Positions 15,536 through 58,942 of a DNA stretch of 64,000 nucleotides are shown one piece after another. The translations under genes were made by a program, and so were the position numbers. Source of the stretch: a virus; the IMG/VR virus record IMGVR_UViG_3300009159_000050, positions 25,967 through 89,966 of that record. The stretch is one strand, 5' to 3'. Positions within the stretch are counted from its first letter, which is position 1. The number at the start of each line of letters is the position of its first letter. A model generated the notes under the pieces. That model saw nothing but the letters and a program-made list of their open reading frames with translations. It had not been told where the DNA came from and did not search any database.

Positions 15536-15609
15536 TGGAGCGAATAGCGGGAATCAAACCCGCACATTAACCTTGGCAAGGTTACGCACTATCACTATGC
15601 AATATCCGC
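15536..15609 (-). tRNA. tRNA-Gly(GCC), CCA encoded
   Basis: Cloverleaf with acceptor GCGGATA/TATTCGC, anticodon arm TAACC-TTGCCAA-GGTTA, T arm GCGGG-TTTGATT-CCCGC, U73 and CCA. Confidence 0.9.
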
Positions 15610-15613
15610 ACTG

Positions 15614-15686
15614 CTGGTCTGGCAAGATTTGAACTTGCGACATGGGCATTAACAGTGCCCCGCTCTGCCAGCTGAGCTACAGACCA
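15614..15686 (-). tRNA. tRNA-Asn(GTT), CCA not encoded
   Basis: Cloverleaf with acceptor TGGTCTG/CAGACCA, anticodon arm GGGCA-CTGTTAA-TGCCC, T arm GCAAG-TTCAAAT-CTTGC, G73. Confidence 0.92.
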
Positions 15687-25907: not shown

Positions 25908-26178
25908 TAAAACCTTTCAATTCTTTTAACATTTTGTTTACTGCTTTTTCACTTACGTTACAATTTGCACAAAATCCAGAGTCGTTATATATAGAAAGAG
26001 AAGTTCCGCATCCACCTAAGCATCTACGGTCCTTCCCCTTTCTTTTTTGTCTACGAGTTATTTGATATCTTTCCTGAATCTTATCTCTTGTAGCAAGGTC
26101 TCTGCACTCATGGCTACAGTAAATCTGATAACTGACCTTTGGGCTAAACCTAATGTCACATCTGCTACAAAGCTTCAC
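25888..26178 (-). CDS. Double zinc-finger protein
   Basis: CSRC...YCSHEC and CLGGC...FCANC. Confidence 0.7.
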   Translation of the reverse strand: MKLCSRCDIRFSPKVSYQIYCSHECRDLATRDKIQERYQITRRQKRKGKDRRCLGGCGTSLSIYNDSGFCANCNVSEKAVNKMLKELKGFIEYEQE

Positions 26179-48687: not shown

Positions 48688-49136
48688 TATACCTCCGTAA
48701 AGTCAATGCTCATACTAACGTAGTCTGACACCTTTGTTCTATTAATAATACTCTTAGAAAACTTTTCCATAAAAACAGTATATACTTCAGAAGCATTTTG
48801 TGCAGTAACAAAGTTACCTGATGAATCAAGCTCAGAGGCAACAACCTTTAAATAAATAGGAGAGCCTACATTGGACTTATAAAATGATTCAAGCCAAGCA
48901 GCACTATTATTTAAGTCAACTGTCTCAGATGTTTTTGATGGAACATACGACCAAGAAACCGATATATTCTTTTTTTGAGCAACTATATATTTTCTCATCT
49001 TACCATTAGCCATTCTAGCCTGGGTTTCAATAATCTCTGTAGAAATACTAATAGGATCTCTATTATGGTCTGTAAGTTTTTGCCAATTAGAATTATCTAG
49101 GGATAGCTGGATTCCAGCTTGTAGTAAGTACGCCAT
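48687..49136 (-). CDS. Distal tail (Dit-like) protein
   Basis: Directly after TMP; RMANGKMRKY...W.Y.P; ends F.EV. Confidence 0.65.
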   Translation of the reverse strand: MAYLLQAGIQLSLDNSNWQKLTDHNRDPISISTEIIETQARMANGKMRKYIVAQKKNISVSWSYVPSKTSETVDLNNSAAWLESFYKSNVGSPIYLKVVASELDSSGNFVTAQNASEVYTVFMEKFSKSIINRTKVSDYVSMSIDFTEV

Positions 49137-52100
49137 TATAAATTAACCTTATTAGTCTTATTATTTTTGCTTACTTCTAGCTTTAGCTTTCTCATAACTT
49201 CATTTGCTACAATTTCTGGGTTTGCGCTATTACTTGTTACAGGCATATTTATATTATACACTGTACCGCCAGAGTTTGCGCCCACTGTTGCGGTACCGTT
49301 ATTAATTGCATCCATTGTTTTAACACCATAATCTCTTACAGATGATGCTTTAACAACATATTCTCCATTTGAAACTCTAATTGATCCTCCACCAGCATAG
49401 CCAAGTGACGCTGTAATTGAATCTGATATTCCTGTTCCTGGTCCCCTGATAAGTCCACCATTGGCAAATTTAGGAATTCTAAGCTTTCCTTTATCTATAA
49501 ATCCTCCAGTTGCACCAGTAATTGCATCTCCAGCGCTACCTGGAAATGAACGATTAAATGGTGATACAAAAAGAGAGGCACTTTCGGACATAGCCCAAGG
49601 AAATCCTGCTGGATAATCTGGGGTTAACGTAAGTCTCTGCAAGTCAAAAAGATCGTCTGGAGATACATAGCTAAGGCCTCTTAGAAAATATGGATAGGTA
49701 TTGTAAGTACGGTTTGGACTGTTTCTCCAGGCAGTTAATTCGTCCTGGGTTTGGTTTCGGGGCATGACACCAGTTTGGCGAGATGCAAAGGCGGCAGCTT
49801 CAGTTTCTAAGTCTTTAATTCTTTGTAGTTCTGATAAAGCACTTGGATCTACATATCCGTCATTTCCATATGGGAAGTTCTTTGATGTACGAAATGGATT
49901 TTTAAACCATGCTACAACTTCTGGTCTAAAATTTGCATCCTGATACTCTTGCCTGCGAAGCAAATCATCCCGCTGCCAACCAATTGTGGAGTTGCGCTCA
50001 GCTGCAAACCATTCTTCCAGTGGACTCGCGCTGGAAACCATCCCGCTGGCGCGAGGGTCATCAGATTTTTTAGGCTTTTTAGGCTTTTTAGTTATTTTAG
50101 GTATTTTAGGTTTTTGAATAAGTTTTTGCACAGTTGTTTTTAAACTAGAAAGACCTGGAAGAGTAGGGTTATCTACAAGACTAGCCATACCTGGAAGATC
50201 ATAAATCTTATCATATGACATAAACCCACCAATTTTAGGAGCTGATGCTTTGCCTCCTGTGTCGCTCAGAGTATGAGAATGTCGTATTCTAGTAATTGCA
50301 GCTGCTTTATTATATAAAAAAGTTGAAAGACCCTGGTTTTGATAAGCTTTATCTGTATAGCGATAACCAATAGCTCCCGTAATTGGATCATAGGTTATAG
50401 AAGCGGCTGTTTTTCCAGTCAATGGGTCTATAACCTCTACTTGGTGGCGGGGATGTCGCCATGGGCTTAGTGACTCCCGTCCAAGGCCAGATCCTGGGTC
50501 TTTTATGGTTGAAAGAAAATCGTCTATAACTGGAGCATCTGCTTGATTCAAAGTATGTTTAGTAAACCTATAAATAAAGCTTTTATCACCCATCGTAAAA
50601 GGCTCTTCTATGACTGCTGGCAAAGCTTTATTTTCTGCAATAAGTTGTTTAGAGGTCGCACGTGGTAAATCCATTAGTGGGATAAAATTATTTAGTTTTG
50701 CTGCTAGTAGTGCCTCCCAATGTGCAAGGTCAAGTCGTGCTGCATCACCTTCTGGGAATAATAGTCTGCCTGATGATTTTATATCTTCAAACTTTTTTCT
50801 AGATACAGCGACCTTTTTCTTAAGTGCAGCGTTTGGATCAAATTTAGATTTAATGGATTGTAACATACCTGTAAGTCCAACGCCTGCCTCTGATTTGTAT
50901 GCTGCTAGTGCAGTTTTTTCAGCAGCTTTTTCAGAAGCTATTTTTGCAATCACTTCTTTACTAATTCCAATGTTGCCTATACGTGTACCAATTCTACCCC
51001 ATGGAAGAATTCCTGCAATATCAAGTGTTTGCTGCAACGCCATTTCAGGTGCAACTGATCCAAACCCTTCTTCTTGAGATCTTTTAATCCATTCTTCTTC
51101 TTGATTTCTATTTGTAGATGTCAGATAAGGAGTTCCTGGAAGGTCAAGGCCAGCAAAACGTAACATTTTCATTCCTTGGTTTACTGCTCCCATTTGTGCT
51201 AATCTGTCTACCCATGTAATACCTGGAAAAATGAAATTCTTATATGCATCGTAAGGAAGATCTACTACTCCATGGATATCTTGACCACGTAGATCTTTTC
51301 CTATTCCATAAGCCATAGGGTTAAAGATATCCTTAAAGCCTTGAAATGGTTTCTCATCTGGCTGCATTGACTTTGGTAGCGATTGCCAAGACTTAAAAAT
51401 ATTCTTTGGAGTTTCTTTCTTTGCCAACCAATCCATATTATTTTGATTTCCTTGACTTGAATAGTAGGCTGCAGATCCTGGTGCAAACTTAGTTCCAGCC
51501 ACAGAGCTTCCATGTCTATGTCCTGCTAGTCCACCTTCATGGAATCCTTTAGCTTTATCTAATCCACTATCAGTTATGTATTTTTTAAAGTTTTGCCATT
51601 GTAGAGAATTTTTGATCTCATCTGGATTTGTCCTTGCTGGTGGTTTAAATCTTTGAAGACCTTCTGCCCACCCAAGATAAACATCCTTTGTTGCTTGTGG
51701 CATATTTGGAGAGTTTTCTACAAGACCCCTTAAAAATGATGGATTAAGTCTCATAGGCATATTTAAAGCATTGTTTTCAAATTGTGCGTAACTGCTAAAA
51801 TACCCTCTTAGACCGCCATAACTTGGGCCGTATGGGTTTCCAATTTGTAATGCTAGCTTTTTATCTTTTATCTTTTTGCTACTCATAAATTTGGTATATG
51901 CTTTAAAAGTACTTTCATCAGCAAAAGCTTCAGCTGCGCCACCAAAATAAGTAATGGAGTCATAGTCTTGTAAAGTGATTGCACGGTCTTCCCAGGCTGC
52001 TAATCCCATACCCTTTTGTTTATTTTCTGCTGTTACAAAAAGTGATTCGTATTCATCTGCTAAATCTTTTTTACCGTCTTTTCTTAACTTTGCAATTGTT

Positions 52101-55100
52101 TTTCTAAAAGAGTCGTGTAAAACATCCATATCAAAATGGTGCATTGTCTCATGTATTGCAGTGTTACCCTGTACTTTATACTTTGAGTTAAACAATATGT
52201 GTGGTAGCAAATTTTCATAATTAGAAGATTTATCACCAAACCTTGGAATATATTGTCCGCCAACTCCTGCTGGCAATTCTTCCTTTTTTATTTTTGGTAG
52301 GGGTACATCTCCTAATGTATCAGATAAAAACTTTTCAACTTGGTTAGGCTTTATGGCTTTACCAGCTTGTTTGCCAACAAATAACTTAGAAATAAGTTTA
52401 CCAATACCACCAAGAATATTGCCTGCAAGACCTCCGCCAGCAAGCATAAGCGGTCCAAGTCCATATGCTCCCATGCCCATTCCACCCATAGAAGCTCCAG
52501 AGCCTGGATAGCGCATTGGATCTTTGTCTATACCCATTCCTGAACCAAAAAGTTTGTTTGGCTGCTCTTGCATTTGATGCCAGTAATCTGATATATCTTT
52601 TGTCTTTCCAGCAAAGTTAAGTCCTGGAATTTCTGTCCCGCCCCAAAGGTCTTTACCCTTTGAAGGATTGTATCTTAGCTCGCCCCATCTGCCTGTGCGT
52701 GAATTTCCTGTTGGTTTTCCATTTAAATAATTTGGTAGGTCTGGGCGCCATGGGAACAATGGAAGTTGCTGACTAGAACCAGGTTTTACTGGTCCACCCT
52801 CAGCAAGATTCATTATTTCGTAAATGTCACGCATATTTGGAACAACTAGTGAATTAGGAATATAGGTGTTTCCACCCATGTTATCTTTATAGTATCTATT
52901 TTTTATTTTTAAGCGATCCCCTAAAAATTTTCCTGGAAGAGAGCCTGCATCCTTTTTATTTTTTATAAGCCCACCTTCTGCAAACCTTCCAGCATTAAGT
53001 GCATCAAGTGCACCTACCCCATACTTCTTAACAGATTTTGCTTTAACTACATACTCGCCATTTGAAAGTAATGCGGGTATGGAATCAGAAGTACCAGTCC
53101 CAGCACCTCTAATCATTCCTCCACTAGCTTGTTTTATTACATCTTTCGCTTTTTCCTTCTTAGGAATCCTGTTAACTTCTGATCTAGCAAGAGAAGCTCC
53201 ACCTCTAATTTCTTCTGCTCTAGCCTTTAGTCTAGCAATTTCAGCATCTTTTATTCTTATCTCTGTGTCTTGATCAAATTCCATTTGTAGGTTTTGTGCT
53301 TGCTGTTCAAGAGATGCTGCTTTTATATAGTCTCCAGAGATCTTTGCCAATACCACTTCATTGGCAAGACCCTTCATCTTCATTTGAAGATCTATATGTC
53401 TTTGTGATTCATCATTAACACTCTTTTGTGCATCACGTTTTGCTTCAAGTCCCTTGATTTCTGCATCAAGAACCTTTAGGTATGCTTCTGAAGATTTGCT
53501 TAGCCCATCAACTCCATCTGTAGGATCTGTGTAATCTGTTACTTCTGGATTAAGAAATTCTTTATACTGCTTATACGAATCTGTAAAATTACTAGACTTT
53601 AAATATGCTTGAATCATTTCAAGAGGTGAGACTTTTCTCATTCCTTGTGATCTAGCCCAGTTTTTAATAGCATCTGCTGTTGTAAGCTGTAATGCAAGAT
53701 TCATCATAATAATCTTGTCAGCTGTCATTGCAGCCTCATCACCGCTTTCTTTAAAAATAGTTTTAATTTCAGCTAGTCTAGCAATTGCATCTGGATTTTT
53801 GCTTGCATTAATAGCAGCACTTAAAGCCACTACCCCAACTTCTGCAGTTACAGAAGATGATTTTAATCCATTAACTCTTTCAATAATTTGATCAAAGCTT
53901 AAGCTACCATTGCTTGTAACACTAAATAAATCAAGCATTTGATCTGCAAGAATTTTTTGAATATTTGTTAAATCACCGTATGACTTGGCTATAGCACCTG
54001 TATATTGTGTTCCTGCAAAGAAAGAATCACCAGCTTTTCTATTTGCTTCTGCAACCTTATCTAGACTTACTGTTGTTGCTGTTTGTGCATCTACTACATC
54101 TTTAGAAACACTTTTCCAAACTTCTGCAAAGTCTTTAGTTCTATTAGCTGCTGCTAAAAGGCCTTGTACATATTTTTCTGCATTTTTTGGGTCAAGCCCA
54201 CCAACTGATATAGCTGTAGTAACCTGAGATCTAATTGATCCAGTTAGGCTTCTTAAACTTAATTCGCTATCTGATATATTTTTAATAAATATTGCCAAAG
54301 GATTATCTTCTGGAAGTTTACTTATTGCATCAACTACGGCTTGAACTTCTGGAGATAGCATCCCAAGGCTGTCTTTTAAATTATTTGAGGCTAATACAAG
54401 ATTTGTAATTTTTATCTCTGTGTTTAAAGCTGTATCTCCAAGTAAGGATATAATTTCAGTGCTTGGAGTAAATGTTGCTCTTACGCTTGCTGCATGCTCA
54501 TTTTGTTTTTTAATTAATGCAGTAAGTGCTGTTGTTACTAATCCAATAGATGCTCCAGCTAGTGGGCCCCATTTTCCAAACATCATTCCTAAGCTTGCGC
54601 CTGCGAGTGCTCCTTGAGCCATACCCTTACCAGCAAAGTCTGGAAGCATTGAAAGAGCCATGTTTGCTCCAAGAATACCCATTCCTCCCCCTTTGGAGGC
54701 TAATCTTTGTATTCCTTTTGGTTTTACTTGAGGAGGATCTTTAGGATCTGGAGGAACAATTGGCAATACCGTCATTCCTGGCTGTGGTGTAGCTCCAATT
54801 GGTGCTGGTCCTTGAGCTCTTGTAGCTACTCTACGTGCTCTTCCACTTTGTTTTCTAAGTTCTTTATCTCTTGCTGCTGCATAAGCTCTTGCATCATCTC
54901 TTCCATCTTGTGCTGCAAGTCTATGTGGACTTTTTCTGTCACGACTAGCTTCGTATATGTCTCGTGTACCCTTTTTTACTCCTCTGTCATAAGCCTCTCC
55001 GTCTTTTTTGCCTCTTTCCATTACTGCTCTTGCAGTTGCAACAGACCCCGATTTTCTAGGATCACTTTCTAATGTAGAAATGTCTACAGCTCTTGGAGGA

Positions 55101-57850
55101 AATACATGACCCATTTGTAAGTCTGCAGCAGACTTTCCAGTCATTCTTTCATATAGCCTTTTTGCTCCTGGACGAATTCTTGTATAAGATCTAAGTCCAG
55201 TTAGTCTGGATTTAAAGGCTCCACGTCTTGATCTATTTGGTGCTGTGCCACCTGCTTCTCTAGAATCAGTTGGGATGGTACCATATACATCTTCATCTAA
55301 ACCAAAAGTTCTTCTTACTACAGCACGCTCTTTTGGTGCCGCTATAGAATCAACCTGCTTTTCTACTGATTTTCCAGCAGCAGCCCAAGATTTACGCATT
55401 CTTTCGTTCTCATCTTTTATATCTGCAAATGTTGTATTATATTCTGTATTTAATCTATCTACAAATTGTGATGTAATTTGTTCATATTCTCTGTATATAC
55501 CATCAAATCTTCCAGATGATATCTGTGATGATGTTGGAGCTATTCCTCTTGCCTCTCCTATTCTTAAAGCAAGAGGAGAAAGAACTGATGGAGTATTAGT
55601 AGTGCCAGCACGTCCTGCCATATTTTCTGCAGCAGGCTGTAGTCTTATGGCATGCTCTGGATAGATAGGAAGTTCAGTAGCACCTAGTTTTGGTTTTCCA
55701 ACGTCATATCCTGGAATCTTATCAGCAATCATTGCATTGATAATGCTGCCATACTTTTGGCTCATCTTAGTTGGTATTACTGTTTCTCCAGGCATTAGGA
55801 GTGCTAGTTCTGAATCTTCATTTCCTATACCGCCAACAGTTGATGGTCTTCCGCCTGCAAACTTTTTAATTGGCCCACGAGTAATTGGTGGACCTACTGG
55901 AACAAATTGTGATTGAGCAGCAATAGCTCTTTGGTATGCCCTTGTTAGCGCATTAACTGCTGATGCCTCAGAGGTGAATGTCTGTGCAAGCTTTGTGTGA
56001 ACCTGATCAAGAGATGCTGCAACGGCTGCTGCATTTCTTTGTTCAGTAGTCATGTACTTAACTTCAGATCCTAATACTGCAGTTGACTGTCCAGTTTTAT
56101 TAAATGCTGATTTTAAGAATGCAAAAAGTTTAACCATATTTGCAAGACCGTTCATGACTAAACCAGCTGTCATCAAGAGTACTGGGCCAAGACCAGCAAT
56201 CACTGCAGTTAGAGTAACTATAATCTTTTTAGTAGTTGAACTTAAGCCATCAAACTTTTCTAATATATTTGTAATAAATTTAGCAATTGGTGTGATTCCT
56301 TTTAAGAATTCTTCTCCAAGTGGAATAAGTGCTAGTTTTAAATTTTCAACAGAACTTCTAAATTTATTCATGGCAGACTCTGAGGTCATGCCTAATTCTT
56401 TTTCTGATAAGGCTGCAAGTTGTTGAACCGATGATCCAGCTAAATCAAGAACACGTGATGCTTGAGTTCCTTCTTTTGTTACGTTTGCAAACAATGTAGA
56501 AAGACGTGCAAACTGGAACTTTCCAAACATTTGCTCAATGGCTTGAGCTCTATTGAGTGGATCTAGTTGGTTAAGTGCTGTAGCAAATTCAACAACAGTT
56601 TTCTTTAGGTCTCCTTTATTATCTACAACTATTTTCTTTACATTTATTCCAAAACTTTCAAGCATAGCATTTGCTTTACCAGTTGGGTTAATCATAGATG
56701 CAAGACCAGACTTAAGTGCGTTAGCTCCTTCTGAGGCGTTAATTCCACCTTCTTTCATTGCTGTCATTAAGAATGCTAAATCTTTTACATCTCCGCCAAG
56801 TTGTTGAATAATTGGAGCTGCTTTTGGAATAGCAGTTGATATGTCATCAAGGGATAATACGGTTTGGTTTTCTACTGCGTTAAGAAAATCAATTGATTCC
56901 GCAAGATTTTCTGAAGACATTGAAAAAGCATTTTGCAAAGAAATTGTTGTTTCAAGTGCTTTTTGACTTTCTACTTGGCCAAGGATGGAAAGTCTTGTTG
57001 CTGCAGTTGTTTGTCTTGTTAGATCAACACCTTTAAAGCCTGCTGCTGCAGCTTCTGCTGCTAAACCAACTGTGGTTGAAACTGCGATACCATACTTAGT
57101 AAATTCTTTTCCAAGTTCTTGAATATCTTTTAATGCTTGTTGTGATTCTCCAGTTGGTGTAAATAAATCTCCGTAAACCTTTTTAAATCTAATTGCCTGT
57201 GTTTCCATATCCATAAAGGTTTTTGCAGCAGCTGAACCAACTGCGATAAGTGGCAAAGTAAAACCAACCATAAGCTGGCGTCCTGCCCATTGGGTATTTT
57301 TACCAAAGTTAAGAAGGTTAGTTGAACCCTGTTTTAAAAGCTGGTTGAATATTGCTTGTTTTTGAGCAGCTATCTGTGTTCTTGTTCCAAGATCAGTCAT
57401 GTCAAGAGATAGAGGTCTGACAGCAATTGCCTTCATTGCTCCGCTAGCGTCACGACCCATACGTATATACTGTGTCTGTAAATCTTTTACATTTTCTCTT
57501 GCTACCTTGTTTATCGTGTCTTGCTCAGTCTTAAATAATCTACCGAAAGTTTTTGATGCACCTCCAGCAAATCTAAAATATTCTCCTAATGAGAATTTAT
57601 TTTTTTCTAGACTACTAGTAAAAGACTCAGTAGTAGTTTTTATTGTTCTTATCTCTGCTGCAAATCTGCCAGTAGCATTTACTGAATTTATTAATGTTTG
57701 TTGAAATTGAGCAGAGACTGCATTAGCTGCAGCGCCACCCTTAGCCATTGAGGAATGAAAGGCTGATATCTGTCTCTGTAAATTTTTGATACTGGCAAGT
57801 GCCTGGGTCGTATCAATATTTACTTGAATATTAGACTGAGTATCAGCCAT
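49136..57850 (-). CDS. Tape measure protein (2904 aa) with internal cargo domains
   Basis: TP901-type TMP core (FLNAVENQT...MKEGGINASEGANALKSGLA), TM segments, three GxGxxDS...GE.V modules, HETMH and a GNAT motif. Confidence 0.92.
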   Translation of the reverse strand: MADTQSNIQVNIDTTQALASIKNLQRQISAFHSSMAKGGAAANAVSAQFQQTLINSVNATGRFAAEIRTIKTTTESFTSSLEKNKFSLGEYFRFAGGASKTFGRLFKTEQDTINKVARENVKDLQTQYIRMGRDASGAMKAIAVRPLSLDMTDLGTRTQIAAQKQAIFNQLLKQGSTNLLNFGKNTQWAGRQLMVGFTLPLIAVGSAAAKTFMDMETQAIRFKKVYGDLFTPTGESQQALKDIQELGKEFTKYGIAVSTTVGLAAEAAAAGFKGVDLTRQTTAATRLSILGQVESQKALETTISLQNAFSMSSENLAESIDFLNAVENQTVLSLDDISTAIPKAAPIIQQLGGDVKDLAFLMTAMKEGGINASEGANALKSGLASMINPTGKANAMLESFGINVKKIVVDNKGDLKKTVVEFATALNQLDPLNRAQAIEQMFGKFQFARLSTLFANVTKEGTQASRVLDLAGSSVQQLAALSEKELGMTSESAMNKFRSSVENLKLALIPLGEEFLKGITPIAKFITNILEKFDGLSSTTKKIIVTLTAVIAGLGPVLLMTAGLVMNGLANMVKLFAFLKSAFNKTGQSTAVLGSEVKYMTTEQRNAAAVAASLDQVHTKLAQTFTSEASAVNALTRAYQRAIAAQSQFVPVGPPITRGPIKKFAGGRPSTVGGIGNEDSELALLMPGETVIPTKMSQKYGSIINAMIADKIPGYDVGKPKLGATELPIYPEHAIRLQPAAENMAGRAGTTNTPSVLSPLALRIGEARGIAPTSSQISSGRFDGIYREYEQITSQFVDRLNTEYNTTFADIKDENERMRKSWAAAGKSVEKQVDSIAAPKERAVVRRTFGLDEDVYGTIPTDSREAGGTAPNRSRRGAFKSRLTGLRSYTRIRPGAKRLYERMTGKSAADLQMGHVFPPRAVDISTLESDPRKSGSVATARAVMERGKKDGEAYDRGVKKGTRDIYEASRDRKSPHRLAAQDGRDDARAYAAARDKELRKQSGRARRVATRAQGPAPIGATPQPGMTVLPIVPPDPKDPPQVKPKGIQRLASKGGGMGILGANMALSMLPDFAGKGMAQGALAGASLGMMFGKWGPLAGASIGLVTTALTALIKKQNEHAASVRATFTPSTEIISLLGDTALNTEIKITNLVLASNNLKDSLGMLSPEVQAVVDAISKLPEDNPLAIFIKNISDSELSLRSLTGSIRSQVTTAISVGGLDPKNAEKYVQGLLAAANRTKDFAEVWKSVSKDVVDAQTATTVSLDKVAEANRKAGDSFFAGTQYTGAIAKSYGDLTNIQKILADQMLDLFSVTSNGSLSFDQIIERVNGLKSSSVTAEVGVVALSAAINASKNPDAIARLAEIKTIFKESGDEAAMTADKIIMMNLALQLTTADAIKNWARSQGMRKVSPLEMIQAYLKSSNFTDSYKQYKEFLNPEVTDYTDPTDGVDGLSKSSEAYLKVLDAEIKGLEAKRDAQKSVNDESQRHIDLQMKMKGLANEVVLAKISGDYIKAASLEQQAQNLQMEFDQDTEIRIKDAEIARLKARAEEIRGGASLARSEVNRIPKKEKAKDVIKQASGGMIRGAGTGTSDSIPALLSNGEYVVKAKSVKKYGVGALDALNAGRFAEGGLIKNKKDAGSLPGKFLGDRLKIKNRYYKDNMGGNTYIPNSLVVPNMRDIYEIMNLAEGGPVKPGSSQQLPLFPWRPDLPNYLNGKPTGNSRTGRWGELRYNPSKGKDLWGGTEIPGLNFAGKTKDISDYWHQMQEQPNKLFGSGMGIDKDPMRYPGSGASMGGMGMGAYGLGPLMLAGGGLAGNILGGIGKLISKLFVGKQAGKAIKPNQVEKFLSDTLGDVPLPKIKKEELPAGVGGQYIPRFGDKSSNYENLLPHILFNSKYKVQGNTAIHETMHHFDMDVLHDSFRKTIAKLRKDGKKDLADEYESLFVTAENKQKGMGLAAWEDRAITLQDYDSITYFGGAAEAFADESTFKAYTKFMSSKKIKDKKLALQIGNPYGPSYGGLRGYFSSYAQFENNALNMPMRLNPSFLRGLVENSPNMPQATKDVYLGWAEGLQRFKPPARTNPDEIKNSLQWQNFKKYITDSGLDKAKGFHEGGLAGHRHGSSVAGTKFAPGSAAYYSSQGNQNNMDWLAKKETPKNIFKSWQSLPKSMQPDEKPFQGFKDIFNPMAYGIGKDLRGQDIHGVVDLPYDAYKNFIFPGITWVDRLAQMGAVNQGMKMLRFAGLDLPGTPYLTSTNRNQEEEWIKRSQEEGFGSVAPEMALQQTLDIAGILPWGRIGTRIGNIGISKEVIAKIASEKAAEKTALAAYKSEAGVGLTGMLQSIKSKFDPNAALKKKVAVSRKKFEDIKSSGRLLFPEGDAARLDLAHWEALLAAKLNNFIPLMDLPRATSKQLIAENKALPAVIEEPFTMGDKSFIYRFTKHTLNQADAPVIDDFLSTIKDPGSGLGRESLSPWRHPRHQVEVIDPLTGKTAASITYDPITGAIGYRYTDKAYQNQGLSTFLYNKAAAITRIRHSHTLSDTGGKASAPKIGGFMSYDKIYDLPGMASLVDNPTLPGLSSLKTTVQKLIQKPKIPKITKKPKKPKKSDDPRASGMVSSASPLEEWFAAERNSTIGWQRDDLLRRQEYQDANFRPEVVAWFKNPFRTSKNFPYGNDGYVDPSALSELQRIKDLETEAAAFASRQTGVMPRNQTQDELTAWRNSPNRTYNTYPYFLRGLSYVSPDDLFDLQRLTLTPDYPAGFPWAMSESASLFVSPFNRSFPGSAGDAITGATGGFIDKGKLRIPKFANGGLIRGPGTGISDSITASLGYAGGGSIRVSNGEYVVKASSVRDYGVKTMDAINNGTATVGANSGGTVYNINMPVTSNSANPEIVANEVMRKLKLEVSKNNKTNKVNL

Positions 57851-57874: not shown

Positions 57875-58198
57875 TTATTCATTACCGTTGAACATTGCTG
57901 CTGCATCAGAAATCTTAATTCCTGAAGCTACTTCAACAATCTCATAAACGGTAGGCAAATCAATGTTCTCTTCAAGTACTGAAATGTCTGTAGATAGCTC
58001 TGGCTTATACTGCTCCATTGCAATTAGAACACATTCCATTAGTAAGTCAATAGACTTCTCGTTGTCGTCTACTACTGCTGCAATACCCTCAAACTTTTTC
58101 ATAAACTTTCGTAAAAGTGAAATCTTAAGCGGTCTTAAGGTTATTTCTGTACCATCAATTAGCTTGATCTTTTGCGCTTCATGCACAGTTGTTGCCAT
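57875..58198 (-). CDS. Tail assembly chaperone, short G-like form
   Basis: Just before TMP; paralog of the N-half of 58226-58942; GGGAGG SD before MATTV (ORF track starts at 58213). Confidence 0.75.
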   Translation of the reverse strand: MATTVHEAQKIKLIDGTEITLRPLKISLLRKFMKKFEGIAAVVDDNEKSIDLLMECVLIAMEQYKPELSTDISVLEENIDLPTVYEIVEVASGIKISDAAAMFNGNE

Positions 58199-58224
58199 GT
58201 TGATCCCTCCCATAGGTTAAGATA

Positions 58225-58233
58225 ATTATACCA
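58225..58233 (-). promoter_or_regulatory. Extended -10 promoter for the short chaperone and TMP
   Basis: TGGTATAAT overlaps the upstream stop codon. Confidence 0.6.
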
Positions 58234-58942
58234 TAAGGGATGGGTCTCTTGCGTCTTCATATTCAAGACCAAACCCAATACCAAAACCAGCCTTCTTAGC
58301 ATTCTGCCCCTGCAATGATAATATGTCATTGCTATCACTTGTTGCTCCACCACTAAATACTCTAGCCTTCATATCTTCCCATTCTTTTTGACCACGATCT
58401 GAACCTGATGCTTCATCTAGATCAACTCCTTGAATAGCTGCAAAAAATTTCTTTTCTTGATAATCTAGCTCTCTCTTGCTTGATATAATTGCCATAATCT
58501 CTGACAAGGATAGTGATGCTTCTAGCTCTTTATAATCTTTCCATATACCAAGCAAAAATACTTCAGACTCTAATTTTGCTAAATCAAACTCTTCCCAGGA
58601 TGGTCCTGGGTCTCCCTTTTGGACCTGTGTCTTAATGTCTTCTTCTGATTCCTCGCCAACTTTAATATTTCCAGCAACATCTAGTATTTCATGTACGGTT
58701 GGTAGGTCTATATTGTCTTCTAAGTCCTGAATGCTTTTTGATATTTGAGGATAGTACTGCTTCATTGCTATTCTAGTGCATTCTACTAAAACCTGCATTG
58801 CTTCATCATCGTTTTTGGTTTGTTTAATGTTGTTAAAAGCATCCATGAATTCTCTTAAATACTTAATTTTAAGAGGCATTATTTCTACTTCTGTGCCGTC
58901 AAATAAATAAATATTTTTTGTTTTATATATTTCTGTAGCCAT
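58226..58942 (-). CDS. Tail assembly chaperone, long GT-like form in a single frame
   Basis: After the tail tube gene; G-like N-half plus a C-terminal extension (LESEVFLLGIW...LEASLSL.E). Confidence 0.7.
   Translation of the reverse strand: MATEIYKTKNIYLFDGTEVEIMPLKIKYLREFMDAFNNIKQTKNDDEAMQVLVECTRIAMKQYYPQISKSIQDLEDNIDLPTVHEILDVAGNIKVGEESEEDIKTQVQKGDPGPSWEEFDLAKLESEVFLLGIWKDYKELEASLSLSEIMAIISSKRELDYQEKKFFAAIQGVDLDEASGSDRGQKEWEDMKARVFSGGATSDSNDILSLQGQNAKKAGFGIGFGLEYEDARDPSLMV

Follow-up and report, generated by a model that had tools for sequence, protein, structure and literature searches.

Motif-fenced and exchangeable cassettes within an uncultured lake phage's tape measure protein

The 64,000-nucleotide (nt) stretch analysed here, referred to as the window, covers positions 25,967 to 89,966 of the IMG/VR virus record IMGVR_UViG_3300009159_000050. 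It carries on its minus strand the gene of a tape measure protein (TMP), a single open reading frame (ORF) at 49136..57850 encoding 2,904 amino acids (aa). A short A-x-G-G motif recurs along this protein, and the question raised by the locus is what these motifs mark off and what work they do. A first-pass annotation had taken them for processing or recombination boundaries of an interchangeable cassette protein that delivers effectors at injection. Our results showed that the TMP carries cassettes fenced by the motifs, which are called heads below, and that cassettes are exchanged at these joints among related phages. The explanation that we favour, and hold to be rather probable as a whole, is that of an extended TMP with module-fenced cassettes, in which the heads would serve as joints and as cutting or anchoring signals and the cargo would act on the envelope of the host cell.

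The recurring motif and a larger hook module

All nine motifs listed in the first-pass annotation were recovered at their positions in the translation of the single ORF. They lie within 49136-55870, the extent that had been assigned to the feature, while the gene itself continues past that end to 57850. KKFAGG occupied aa 662-667 (55850-55867), KQASGG aa 1573-1578 (53117-53134) and GRFAEGG aa 1621-1627 (52970-52990), all features of the gene being on the minus strand. Chance expectations were obtained from 2,000 shuffles of the query protein. The pattern A.GG was observed 8 times against 2.52 +/- 1.60 expected, and 8 or more occurrences were reached in 0.55% of the shuffles. The longer patterns were rarer by chance, since 4 or more occurrences of [FL]A.GG (4 observed, 0.30 expected) were found in 0.05% of the shuffles and 3 or more of A.GG[LMI]I (3 observed, 0.02 expected) in 0 of 2,000. 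Plain GG was hardly enriched (31 observed vs 23.3 expected).

Three of the nine motifs turned out to be the heads of a larger repeated module of 50-60 aa that the first-pass annotation had not described, hereafter the hook module. A hidden Markov model (HMM), built from the query copies found by tiled self-comparison and iterated on 120 family proteins, matched the query at aa 666-712, 1575-1624 and 2795-2854 with expectation values (E) of 6e-17, 6e-29 and 7e-26, respectively. KKFAGG, KQASGG and KFANGG (aa 2794-2799, 49454-49471) form the first residues of copies 1, 2 and 3. Laid out with their heads KFAGG, KQASGG and KFANGG, the copies occupy aa 663-712 (55715..55864), aa 1572-1624 (52979..53137) and aa 2794-2854 (49289..49471); the other six motifs stand alone as heads, with no further part of the module attached. 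In the tiled self-comparison copies 2 and 3 (aa 1571-1621 vs 2792-2852) were 56% identical (E 8e-16), and aa 674-701 of copy 1 resembled aa 1584-1611 of copy 2 (E 7e-4). The consensus of the module read A.GGlIkGpGTGtSDSIPAlLSNGEYVikAksVkkYG...aLNaG. That of the head, derived from 200 distinct contexts in the family, read [G/K/R][F/Y/L]-A-x-G-G-[L/S/M/I]-[I/V]-[K/R], with Lys or Arg directly preceding the head in 46% of the contexts vs 12% in the background. The copies within the gene were 57-71% identical at the nt level with exact runs of at most 9 nt, which indicated that they were kept by protein-level selection and were not recent duplicates.

A further head-like motif, FRFAGGASKTFG, was found near the N-terminus (57542-57577, aa 92-103) and was invariant or nearly so in the aligned family; it resembles RALGGTSKGF at aa 137-146 of the T5 protein pb2, the only A.GG of pb2 other than the one discussed below. 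Several heads were followed by a His-rich stretch, GG[PL].GH[KR]H, which appears in the query as GGLAGHRHGSS (51494-51529, aa 2108-2119) and at the junctions of the relatives L042 and L050 as GGPAGHKHS and GGPVGHRHGRN. The sequence xxPNF was rejected as a delimiter, as the query contained no PNF and none of the 120 proteins contained two or more [VI]PNF. The stretch SDSIPA..GEYVV presumably resembles a LexA/signal-peptidase-like module, but the idea of a self-cleaving Ser-Lys module was dropped because neither lambda gpH nor the terminal modules of the lambda-like type contain SDS, and because the authors of the phage JBD30 structure predict a small hook there.

Exchange of cassettes at module and head joints

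The protein search yielded 2,133 proteins with E <=0.001 among 8,000 scored candidates, and the family counts given here refer to the 120 that were listed. These TMPs ranged from 1,683 to 4,340 aa, and many were encoded on contigs of 100-112 kb. Two modules were found in 82 of them, three in 29, four in 8 and one in 1. Module 1 was located at about aa 665 in 119 of the 120 proteins and at aa 172 in one truncated sequence. A terminal hook module was present in 118, of which 99 were of the SNGEYVVKA type (<=70 aa from the end) and 19 were lambda-like. The lambda-like type reads FANGG...LHKGERV(LTA), for example in the last 125 aa of P0026, P0033 and P0072, and both types are followed by the same NNKTN tail. 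Short forms (<1,950 aa) made up 71 of the 120 proteins, and 69 of these 71 contained only module 1 and a terminal module that stops some 50 aa short of the end, whereas every one of the 49 long forms had at least one further internal module with cargo behind it. The family plan thus runs from the core through module 1, variable region 1 and a middle region to repeats of module and cargo, and closes with the terminal module, behind which a tail of some 50 aa follows; the same architecture was found on dozens of independent contigs. Since the short forms aligned only to aa 1-1621 and 2789-2904 of the query, the query carries an insert of 1,170 aa between two module copies.

Comparison of the query with the 119 listed relatives revealed three breaks in similarity, one directly behind module 1, one directly behind module 2 and one immediately in front of module 3. 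On the query, 392 internal ends of high-scoring segment pairs (HSPs) of >=100 aa were counted, with 53 at aa 710-739, 69 at aa 1620-1639 and 79 at aa 2780-2799. Seven of the nine motif sites lay within 12 aa of a breakpoint cluster, while KKFAGG had none and KQASGG had one 24 aa upstream. Throughout the family, A.GG stood within 12 aa of 228 of 1,892 breakpoint clusters, compared with 82 +/- 9.6 at random positions. The enrichment was also seen in the cargo of 51 long proteins, where [FYLM][AH]xGG stood within 12 aa of 116 of 409 clusters, against 31.5 +/- 5.7 for random positions (maximum 50 in 300 trials), and where 142 of 197 motif occurrences lay within 15 aa of a cluster. Control motifs near the cargo clusters showed no enrichment (AA, 59 vs 66.8; PG, 53 vs 56.1).

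Alignment of the related TMPs placed these breaks on individual joints, with a conserved core and tail on either side of the exchanged part. The DNA of L009 matched the query at aa 1-719 with 89% nt identity and after that only in two islands, aa 1574-1626 (92%) and aa 2795-2905 (93%); the first of these holds module 2 as a 155-nt island, 92% identical, between unalignable flanks. In L050 the core aligned only at aa 316-390, yet cassette F was 81% identical in nt over aa 1682-1802, that is, from NLAEGG to MLAGGG. L042 shared cassettes F and D (75% nt, aa 1691-2103) up to GFHEGG, and in P0026 block D passed straight into a full module at the place of GFHEGG in the query. Close pairs differed by whole cassettes. 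P0086 and P0120 were 99% identical over aa 1-719 and then unalignable for about 320 aa, so that variable region 1 was exchanged wholesale; P0058 and P0059 were 99% identical to just past a module, where a 200-aa insertion or deletion followed; and P0039 equalled P0049 (96% identical) with one cassette and one module added. When 65 cargo segments were clustered in tiles of 80 aa, the same blocks were recovered in differing order and with differing neighbours. Block D, which follows F in the query, ended a different segment in P0026 and P0038, and block B, which follows D in the query, stood after other blocks elsewhere. Both the reading of the motifs as recombination boundaries and that of the C-terminal part as interchangeable cassettes were thus borne out. 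Among the metagenome reads, one contig of a lake run departed from the gene at 52431, inside the MLAGGG head, a weak hint, and one contig of another lake run departed at 51497, 11 aa after GFHEGG; these contigs may come from neighbours with another cassette at the same joint.

The array had been proposed as an undescribed system. Cleaved TMPs, enzymes embedded in TMPs and the module itself were already known, whereas no earlier account of motif-fenced arrays was found; this holds for the openly available main texts, and supplements (T5 Fig. S5G and table S3; JBD30 Appendix Fig. S8) may show the motif at the cut site. A survey of mosaicism in phage proteins noted a mosaic signal in TMPs with no genuine recent case that could be confirmed. 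The present family offers a clear natural example of cassettes being exchanged in frame within a TMP.

Likeness to known tape measure proteins and the work of the heads

A 71-aa query around copy 2 found the module in 1,225 of 50,697 phage records, nearly always under annotated TMP genes, in phages of Mycobacterium, Gordonia, Pseudomonas, Vibrio, Burkholderia and others. As 1,329 places were matched in these 1,225 records, most TMPs carry one copy. The module and the heads that flank it form an old, widely distributed element close to the TMP C-terminus, and copy 3 of the query (aa 2795-2854 of 2,904) likewise lies 50-120 aa from the C-terminus. Significant matches were obtained in TMPs of phages with known structures, namely two copies in gp16 of mycobacteriophage Douge (PDB 8zdo, 8zdo_S E 5.5e-15; aa 963-1027 and 1413-1466) and one in JBD30 gp46 (PDB 8rk3, 8rk3_A E 1.4e-05; aa 1016-1078). 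Two copies were likewise found in gp16 of mycobacteriophage UPIE, where no Pfam domain separates them, and the copies of Douge and UPIE are about 390 aa apart. Unlike the query, these TMPs have at most two copies, no known domain between them and no described cassette exchange. The module stretch is unresolved in both the JBD30 and the Douge structure, and the C-terminal 33-42 residues of both TMPs sit in the baseplate hub. For JBD30, residues 1022-1066 were predicted by the authors to fold into a hook that consists of two helices plus a hairpin, which they speculated to anchor the TMP after a nearby cut.

A link between a head and a cut was found in phage T5. According to Linares et al. 2023 (PMC10038345), the TMP pb2 is cut at maturation after R1127 into pb2* and pb2C, and the cut piece stays in the tail tip; the order of hydrophobic stretch, cut and metallopeptidase-motif stretch described there is like that in the query. 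The sequence of pb2 (NC_005859) reads ...FVPR|AEGGMMYPG...GEHGTEVV..., so that the cut falls directly before AEGG, one of only two A.GG in 1,219 aa, a coincidence with a chance of about 2 in 1,218. The cut bond R1127|A1128 is followed by E-G-G as in an AxGG head and then by GE..EVV, similar to GEYVV in the query. Unlike the query, T5 infects E. coli, and its pb2 has one cut, a piece of 92 residues and no string of cassettes. Lambda gpH, for which the first-pass annotation had named F/Y-A-x-G-G motifs at the C-terminus, indeed contains FATGG, GEFV and YATGG, which start at aa 733, 754 and 778, respectively (stretch aa 733-782), which is the same order of head, hook and head as in the query without cargo between the heads. 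According to the Ur-lambda paper (PMC12617516), gpH is converted to gpH* and gpHC by removal of a piece of ~14 kDa from a glycine-rich region, which stays with the hub, and neither the place of the cut nor its catalyst is known. If gpH were cut at FATGG, the products would be of 79.6 and 12.7 kDa.

Short peptides that fence variable cargo are also found in CdiA (the VENN motif), Rhs proteins, the glycine-rich motifs of T-even gp38 and phage polyvalent proteins, where the fencing peptide is a recombination joint and in some cases also a cleavage site. These belong to other protein families and delivery routes, so that the likeness is one of working only and no membership is claimed. Enzymes that ride in or on a TMP and reach the host at infection are likewise familiar, as peptidoglycan-hydrolase motifs are embedded in mycobacteriophage TMPs. 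In Thermus phage P23-45, a virion RNA polymerase is fused to the TMP. In contrast to the motif-fenced and swappable array of the query, each of these TMP enzymes is a single fixed insert or an N-terminal fusion.

In the explanation that we favour, an ordinary TMP of ~1,700 aa has been extended by a 1,170-aa string of unrelated cassettes between an internal and the terminal hook module. Each cassette is bounded by a full module or by its first five residues, [G/K/R][F/Y/L]-A-x-G-G, and at these module and head joints related phages gain, lose, replace and rearrange cassettes. The first job of the heads would be that of in-frame recombination joints. Their second job, which would be to signal where the TMP is cut or anchored in the tail tip, is proposed on the basis of the T5 maturation cut directly before such a head, and by this analogy cutting at the heads in the query phage is plausible. 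We infer that the cassettes would lie as separate pieces in the distal tail lumen and would be the first out at infection. Once released, they would act on the cell envelope, and the candidates for this work are the zincin-like peptidase of the query and the OmpA-type peptidoglycan binder of its relatives. A wider proposal, which we put forward only tentatively, is that the [K/R][F/Y]AxGG head may be a general maturation signal of siphophage TMPs, with a mapped cut in T5 and an unmapped one in lambda, and that lake actinophages may have multiplied it into a virion polyprotein with exchangeable envelope-directed or host-directed pieces released in turn. The motif common to the T5 site, the glycine-rich region of lambda and the cassette joints offers a residue-level hypothesis of where and how TMPs are cut, and if cassettes are delivered, the joints would be ready-made slots for loading proteins into a phage tail.

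Several results weigh against this explanation. Of the cargo breakpoint clusters, 28% had a head and 72% did not, and none was found at query aa 2289, 2335 and 2736. The sequences are related by descent, which means that the enrichment counts do not stand for independent events, and HSPs tend to stop at the edge of any conserved motif. The bond cut in T5 is R|A, while in the query an aromatic residue stands between the basic residue and the Ala. The module HMM found nothing in T5 pb2, even at E 100 with the filters off, and scored lambda gpH at E 0.07 only; the links to T5 and lambda therefore rest on the motifs. No candidate protease, including a GG-specific one, was among the 25 of 48 Pfam families that were listed for the 61 ORFs of the window, which does not imply its absence. 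Globular domains would also have to fit in the tail lumen. Finally, searches of Pfam (E <=10), NCBIfam and PDB profiles gave no significant match for cassettes D, X, B2, I and F or for variable region 1.

Among the other explanations, the best supported is that the modules and heads serve as joints and anchors only. They would act as structural hooks by which the TMP is docked inside the tail tip or the tube, with no internal cuts and with the cassettes remaining tethered, and the conservation of the hook would give recombination its foothold. The hook predicted by the JBD30 authors and its speculated anchoring role agree with this, and so does the protein-level selection on the intragenic copies with their 57-71% nt identity; the Ur-lambda paper (PMC12617516) also states that TMP cleavage has been shown only for T5 and lambda. 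We consider it possible but rather unlikely, because the T5 cut falls exactly at a head and because isolated heads of five residues are also kept at junctions, which is hard to explain by a folded hook. Less probable still, and in our view improbable, is that the inserts are ruler spacers, which would mainly alter the tail length or space passively without an enzymatic or host-directed role. The length of the TMP does set that of the tail in lambda, as stated in the same paper (PMC12617516), and lengths from 1,683 to 4,340 aa within one family and cassettes mostly devoid of a recognisable domain would suit a spacer. Passive spacers would not be expected to include a bona fide OmpA domain or the invariant HExxH...E of cassette D, to stay 60-95% identical across very different cores, or to be richer in Pro, Gly and aromatic residues than the helical core. 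Chance recurrence in a Gly-rich protein or a chimeric assembly, for which the weak enrichment of plain GG (31 vs 23.3) and the origin of the record as a metagenome assembly might be cited, is hardly credible, since the shuffles reject chance for the full motif, dozens of independent contigs share the architecture, and contigs from four other lake runs agree with pieces of the cargo without any difference, one such piece spanning 1,517 nt of cassettes X and D. Parts of the gene left without coverage in these four runs were not counted as evidence.

Layout of the protein, its cargo and its genomic setting

The conserved TMP core (aa 1-660, 55871..57850) was 80-92% identical in many relatives and contained hydrophobic stretches at aa 540-575 by the Kyte-Doolittle scale. 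Module copy 1 was followed by a degenerate head, PGYDVG (aa 713-718, 55697..55714), in which P713 and G714 are invariant and Y715 and G718 nearly so; a cluster of 57 HSP ends lay beside it at aa 725. Variable region 1 (aa 719-1045, 54716..55696) was Arg-rich in composition, with a net charge of +19. Behind it were a Gly-rich hydrophobic stretch (aa 1046-1112) and the middle region (aa 1113-1571), together 53138..54715, with a hydrophobic part at aa 1095-1113; the middle region was 26-89% identical to relatives. Module copy 2 was directly followed by the head RFAEGG (aa 1622-1627, 52970..52987; cluster at aa 1621 with 80 HSP ends), and such a head stood directly after 46 of the 65 internal modules in the family.

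The cargo begins with block Z (aa 1628-1680). The head NLAEGG (aa 1681-1686, 52793..52810) marks the start of cassette F, the DNA matches of L050 and L042 starting at aa 1682 and 1691. Cassette F (aa 1687-1801, 52448..52792) is rich in Gly, Pro and aromatic residues and was 61-78% identical in TMPs with cores of 39-65% identity. It ends at the head MLAGGG (aa 1802-1807, 52430..52447), where the L050 match ended at aa 1802 and clusters lay at aa 1787 and 1808. Behind this head, at 51548..52429, are a short hydrophobic stretch rich in Gly (aa 1808-1829) and the zincin-like cassette D (aa 1830-2101), and cassette D closes with the head GFHEGG (aa 2102-2107, 51530..51547), where the L042 match ended at aa 2103 and a cluster lay at aa 2109. 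Next come cassette X (aa 2108-2335, 50846..51529), replaced by another block in P0002 and P0003, and cassette B2 (aa 2336-2562, 50165..50845), with invariant RIRHS and GGFM. A Lys/Pro linker (aa 2563-2600) and cassette I (aa 2601-2778), distinguished by composition and an internal repeat, occupy 49517..50164; the two parts of the repeat (49631-49963), aa 2630-2678 and aa 2695-2740, were 37% identical (E 3e-5). The array closes with the head GATGG (aa 2779-2783, 49502..49516), which reads LATGG or LADGG in relatives and lay near a cluster of 93 HSP ends at aa 2789, and with module copy 3, 93% identical in nt to L009. The C-terminal tail (aa 2855-2904, 49139..49288) was 70-93% identical across the family whatever the cargo, and by analogy with the hub-bound C-termini of JBD30 and Douge it is the probable tip anchor.

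The segments had been described as unrelated to each other and non-helical. Besides the module, self-comparison gave only the short repeat in aa 2630-2740 and weak matches, in agreement with the first point. The second is consistent with composition alone, as the cargo blocks contained 13-29% Pro+Gly, compared with 7-9% in the core and middle region, and 9-14% aromatic residues, compared with 5-6%.

Two of the blocks had been assigned enzymatic functions. In cassette D, HExxH (aa 1900-1904) and a Glu 70 residues on (E1974), which we take to be the third zinc ligand by analogy with the thermolysin and neprilysin motifs, were kept without exception in 15 of 15 aligned sequences, of which three are only ~25% identical. 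The match to Pfam Peptidase_M13 was non-significant (E 0.11, 12.5 bits vs a cut-off of 24.5, in 1 of 6 members), no PDB match was obtained by profile, NCBIfam gave nothing relevant, and cassette D as a single query found no relative among viral contigs. The zincin assignment thus kept its conserved signature and gained no significant match to a peptidase family or structure. The assignment of cassette B2 as a GNAT was not accepted, as Acetyltransf_1 reached 14.7 bits (E 0.037; cut-off 20.7) in a single one of the 7 homologues scanned and no PDB match was found by profile. When 16 diverse family members were scanned with Pfam, PF10145 and OmpA were the only families to rise above noise, and no Hint domain indicative of inteins was detected in these scans of the query and the 16 members. 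The OmpA domain was located in P0026 at aa 1907-2000 (57.9 bits vs a cut-off of 27.2), between full modules at aa 1785-1834 and 2069-2118. This OmpA-type peptidoglycan-binding domain of relatives is the sole confident cargo domain in the family. A polyprotein or polyvalent protein would combine several unrelated domains in one virion protein; the blocks here are unrelated and shuffled, and OmpA is the one confirmed domain among them. A HMMER search with aa 1830-2560 against 1.84 billion representatives returned only 19 clusters, the strong ones being long TMPs of the family or short partials, so that no cellular homologue was available to guide the function. Cassettes were 60-95% identical across hosts of very different cores. 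A peptidoglycan binder together with a possible peptidase suggests that the cargo may act on the cell envelope rather than as toxins.

The only Pfam match in the query TMP was PF10145 (phage minor tail protein, TP901-type TMP) at aa 242-443 (E 1.3e-25, 90.9 bits vs a cut-off of 33.2), and TMP families of PHROGs matched at aa 7-799 and 1315-1849. The gene is preceded by two ORFs in the tail-chaperone position and an Ig-domain protein and followed by an ORF of 149 aa and a minor tail protein of 1,661 aa. It thus lies between chaperone-position genes and distal tail genes, as is usual for a TP901-type TMP. The N-termini of both chaperone-position ORFs (57875-58213 and 58226-58942) match phrog_10504, and the two look like paralogues, not like a frameshifted G/GT pair.

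The source record, 89,966 bases long and with a completeness rating of 84%, was assembled from a metagenome, and the query is the TMP of an uncultured lake phage with a genome of ~107 kb. No cultured phage record covered 80% of the TMP, and megablast of the gene against phages gave no match. Searches of genome contigs found no prophage relative of the TMP, so no host was obtained by that route. The best cultured-phage matches of the core were Streptomyces phages (32% identity over aa 55-674), a WhiB domain (E 1.1e-10) was among the Pfam matches of the 61 window ORFs, and the gene was present in freshwater metagenome runs, those with small shares being left aside in judging the habitat. These findings make a lake actinobacterium the likely host, and the first-pass guess of an actinobacterial host fits the WhiB gene and the best TMP matches. 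The G+C content was 0.31-0.42. The Pfam families listed for the window, 25 of 48, include at least WhiB, RecA, DnaB_C, DNA polymerase III alpha with PHP, two 2OG-Fe(II) oxygenases, Hsp20, SNase, CHAP and NAD-dependent epimerase. Genes of tRNA-Gly(gcc) and tRNA-Asn(gtt) lie adjacent to each other at 15536-15686 on the minus strand.

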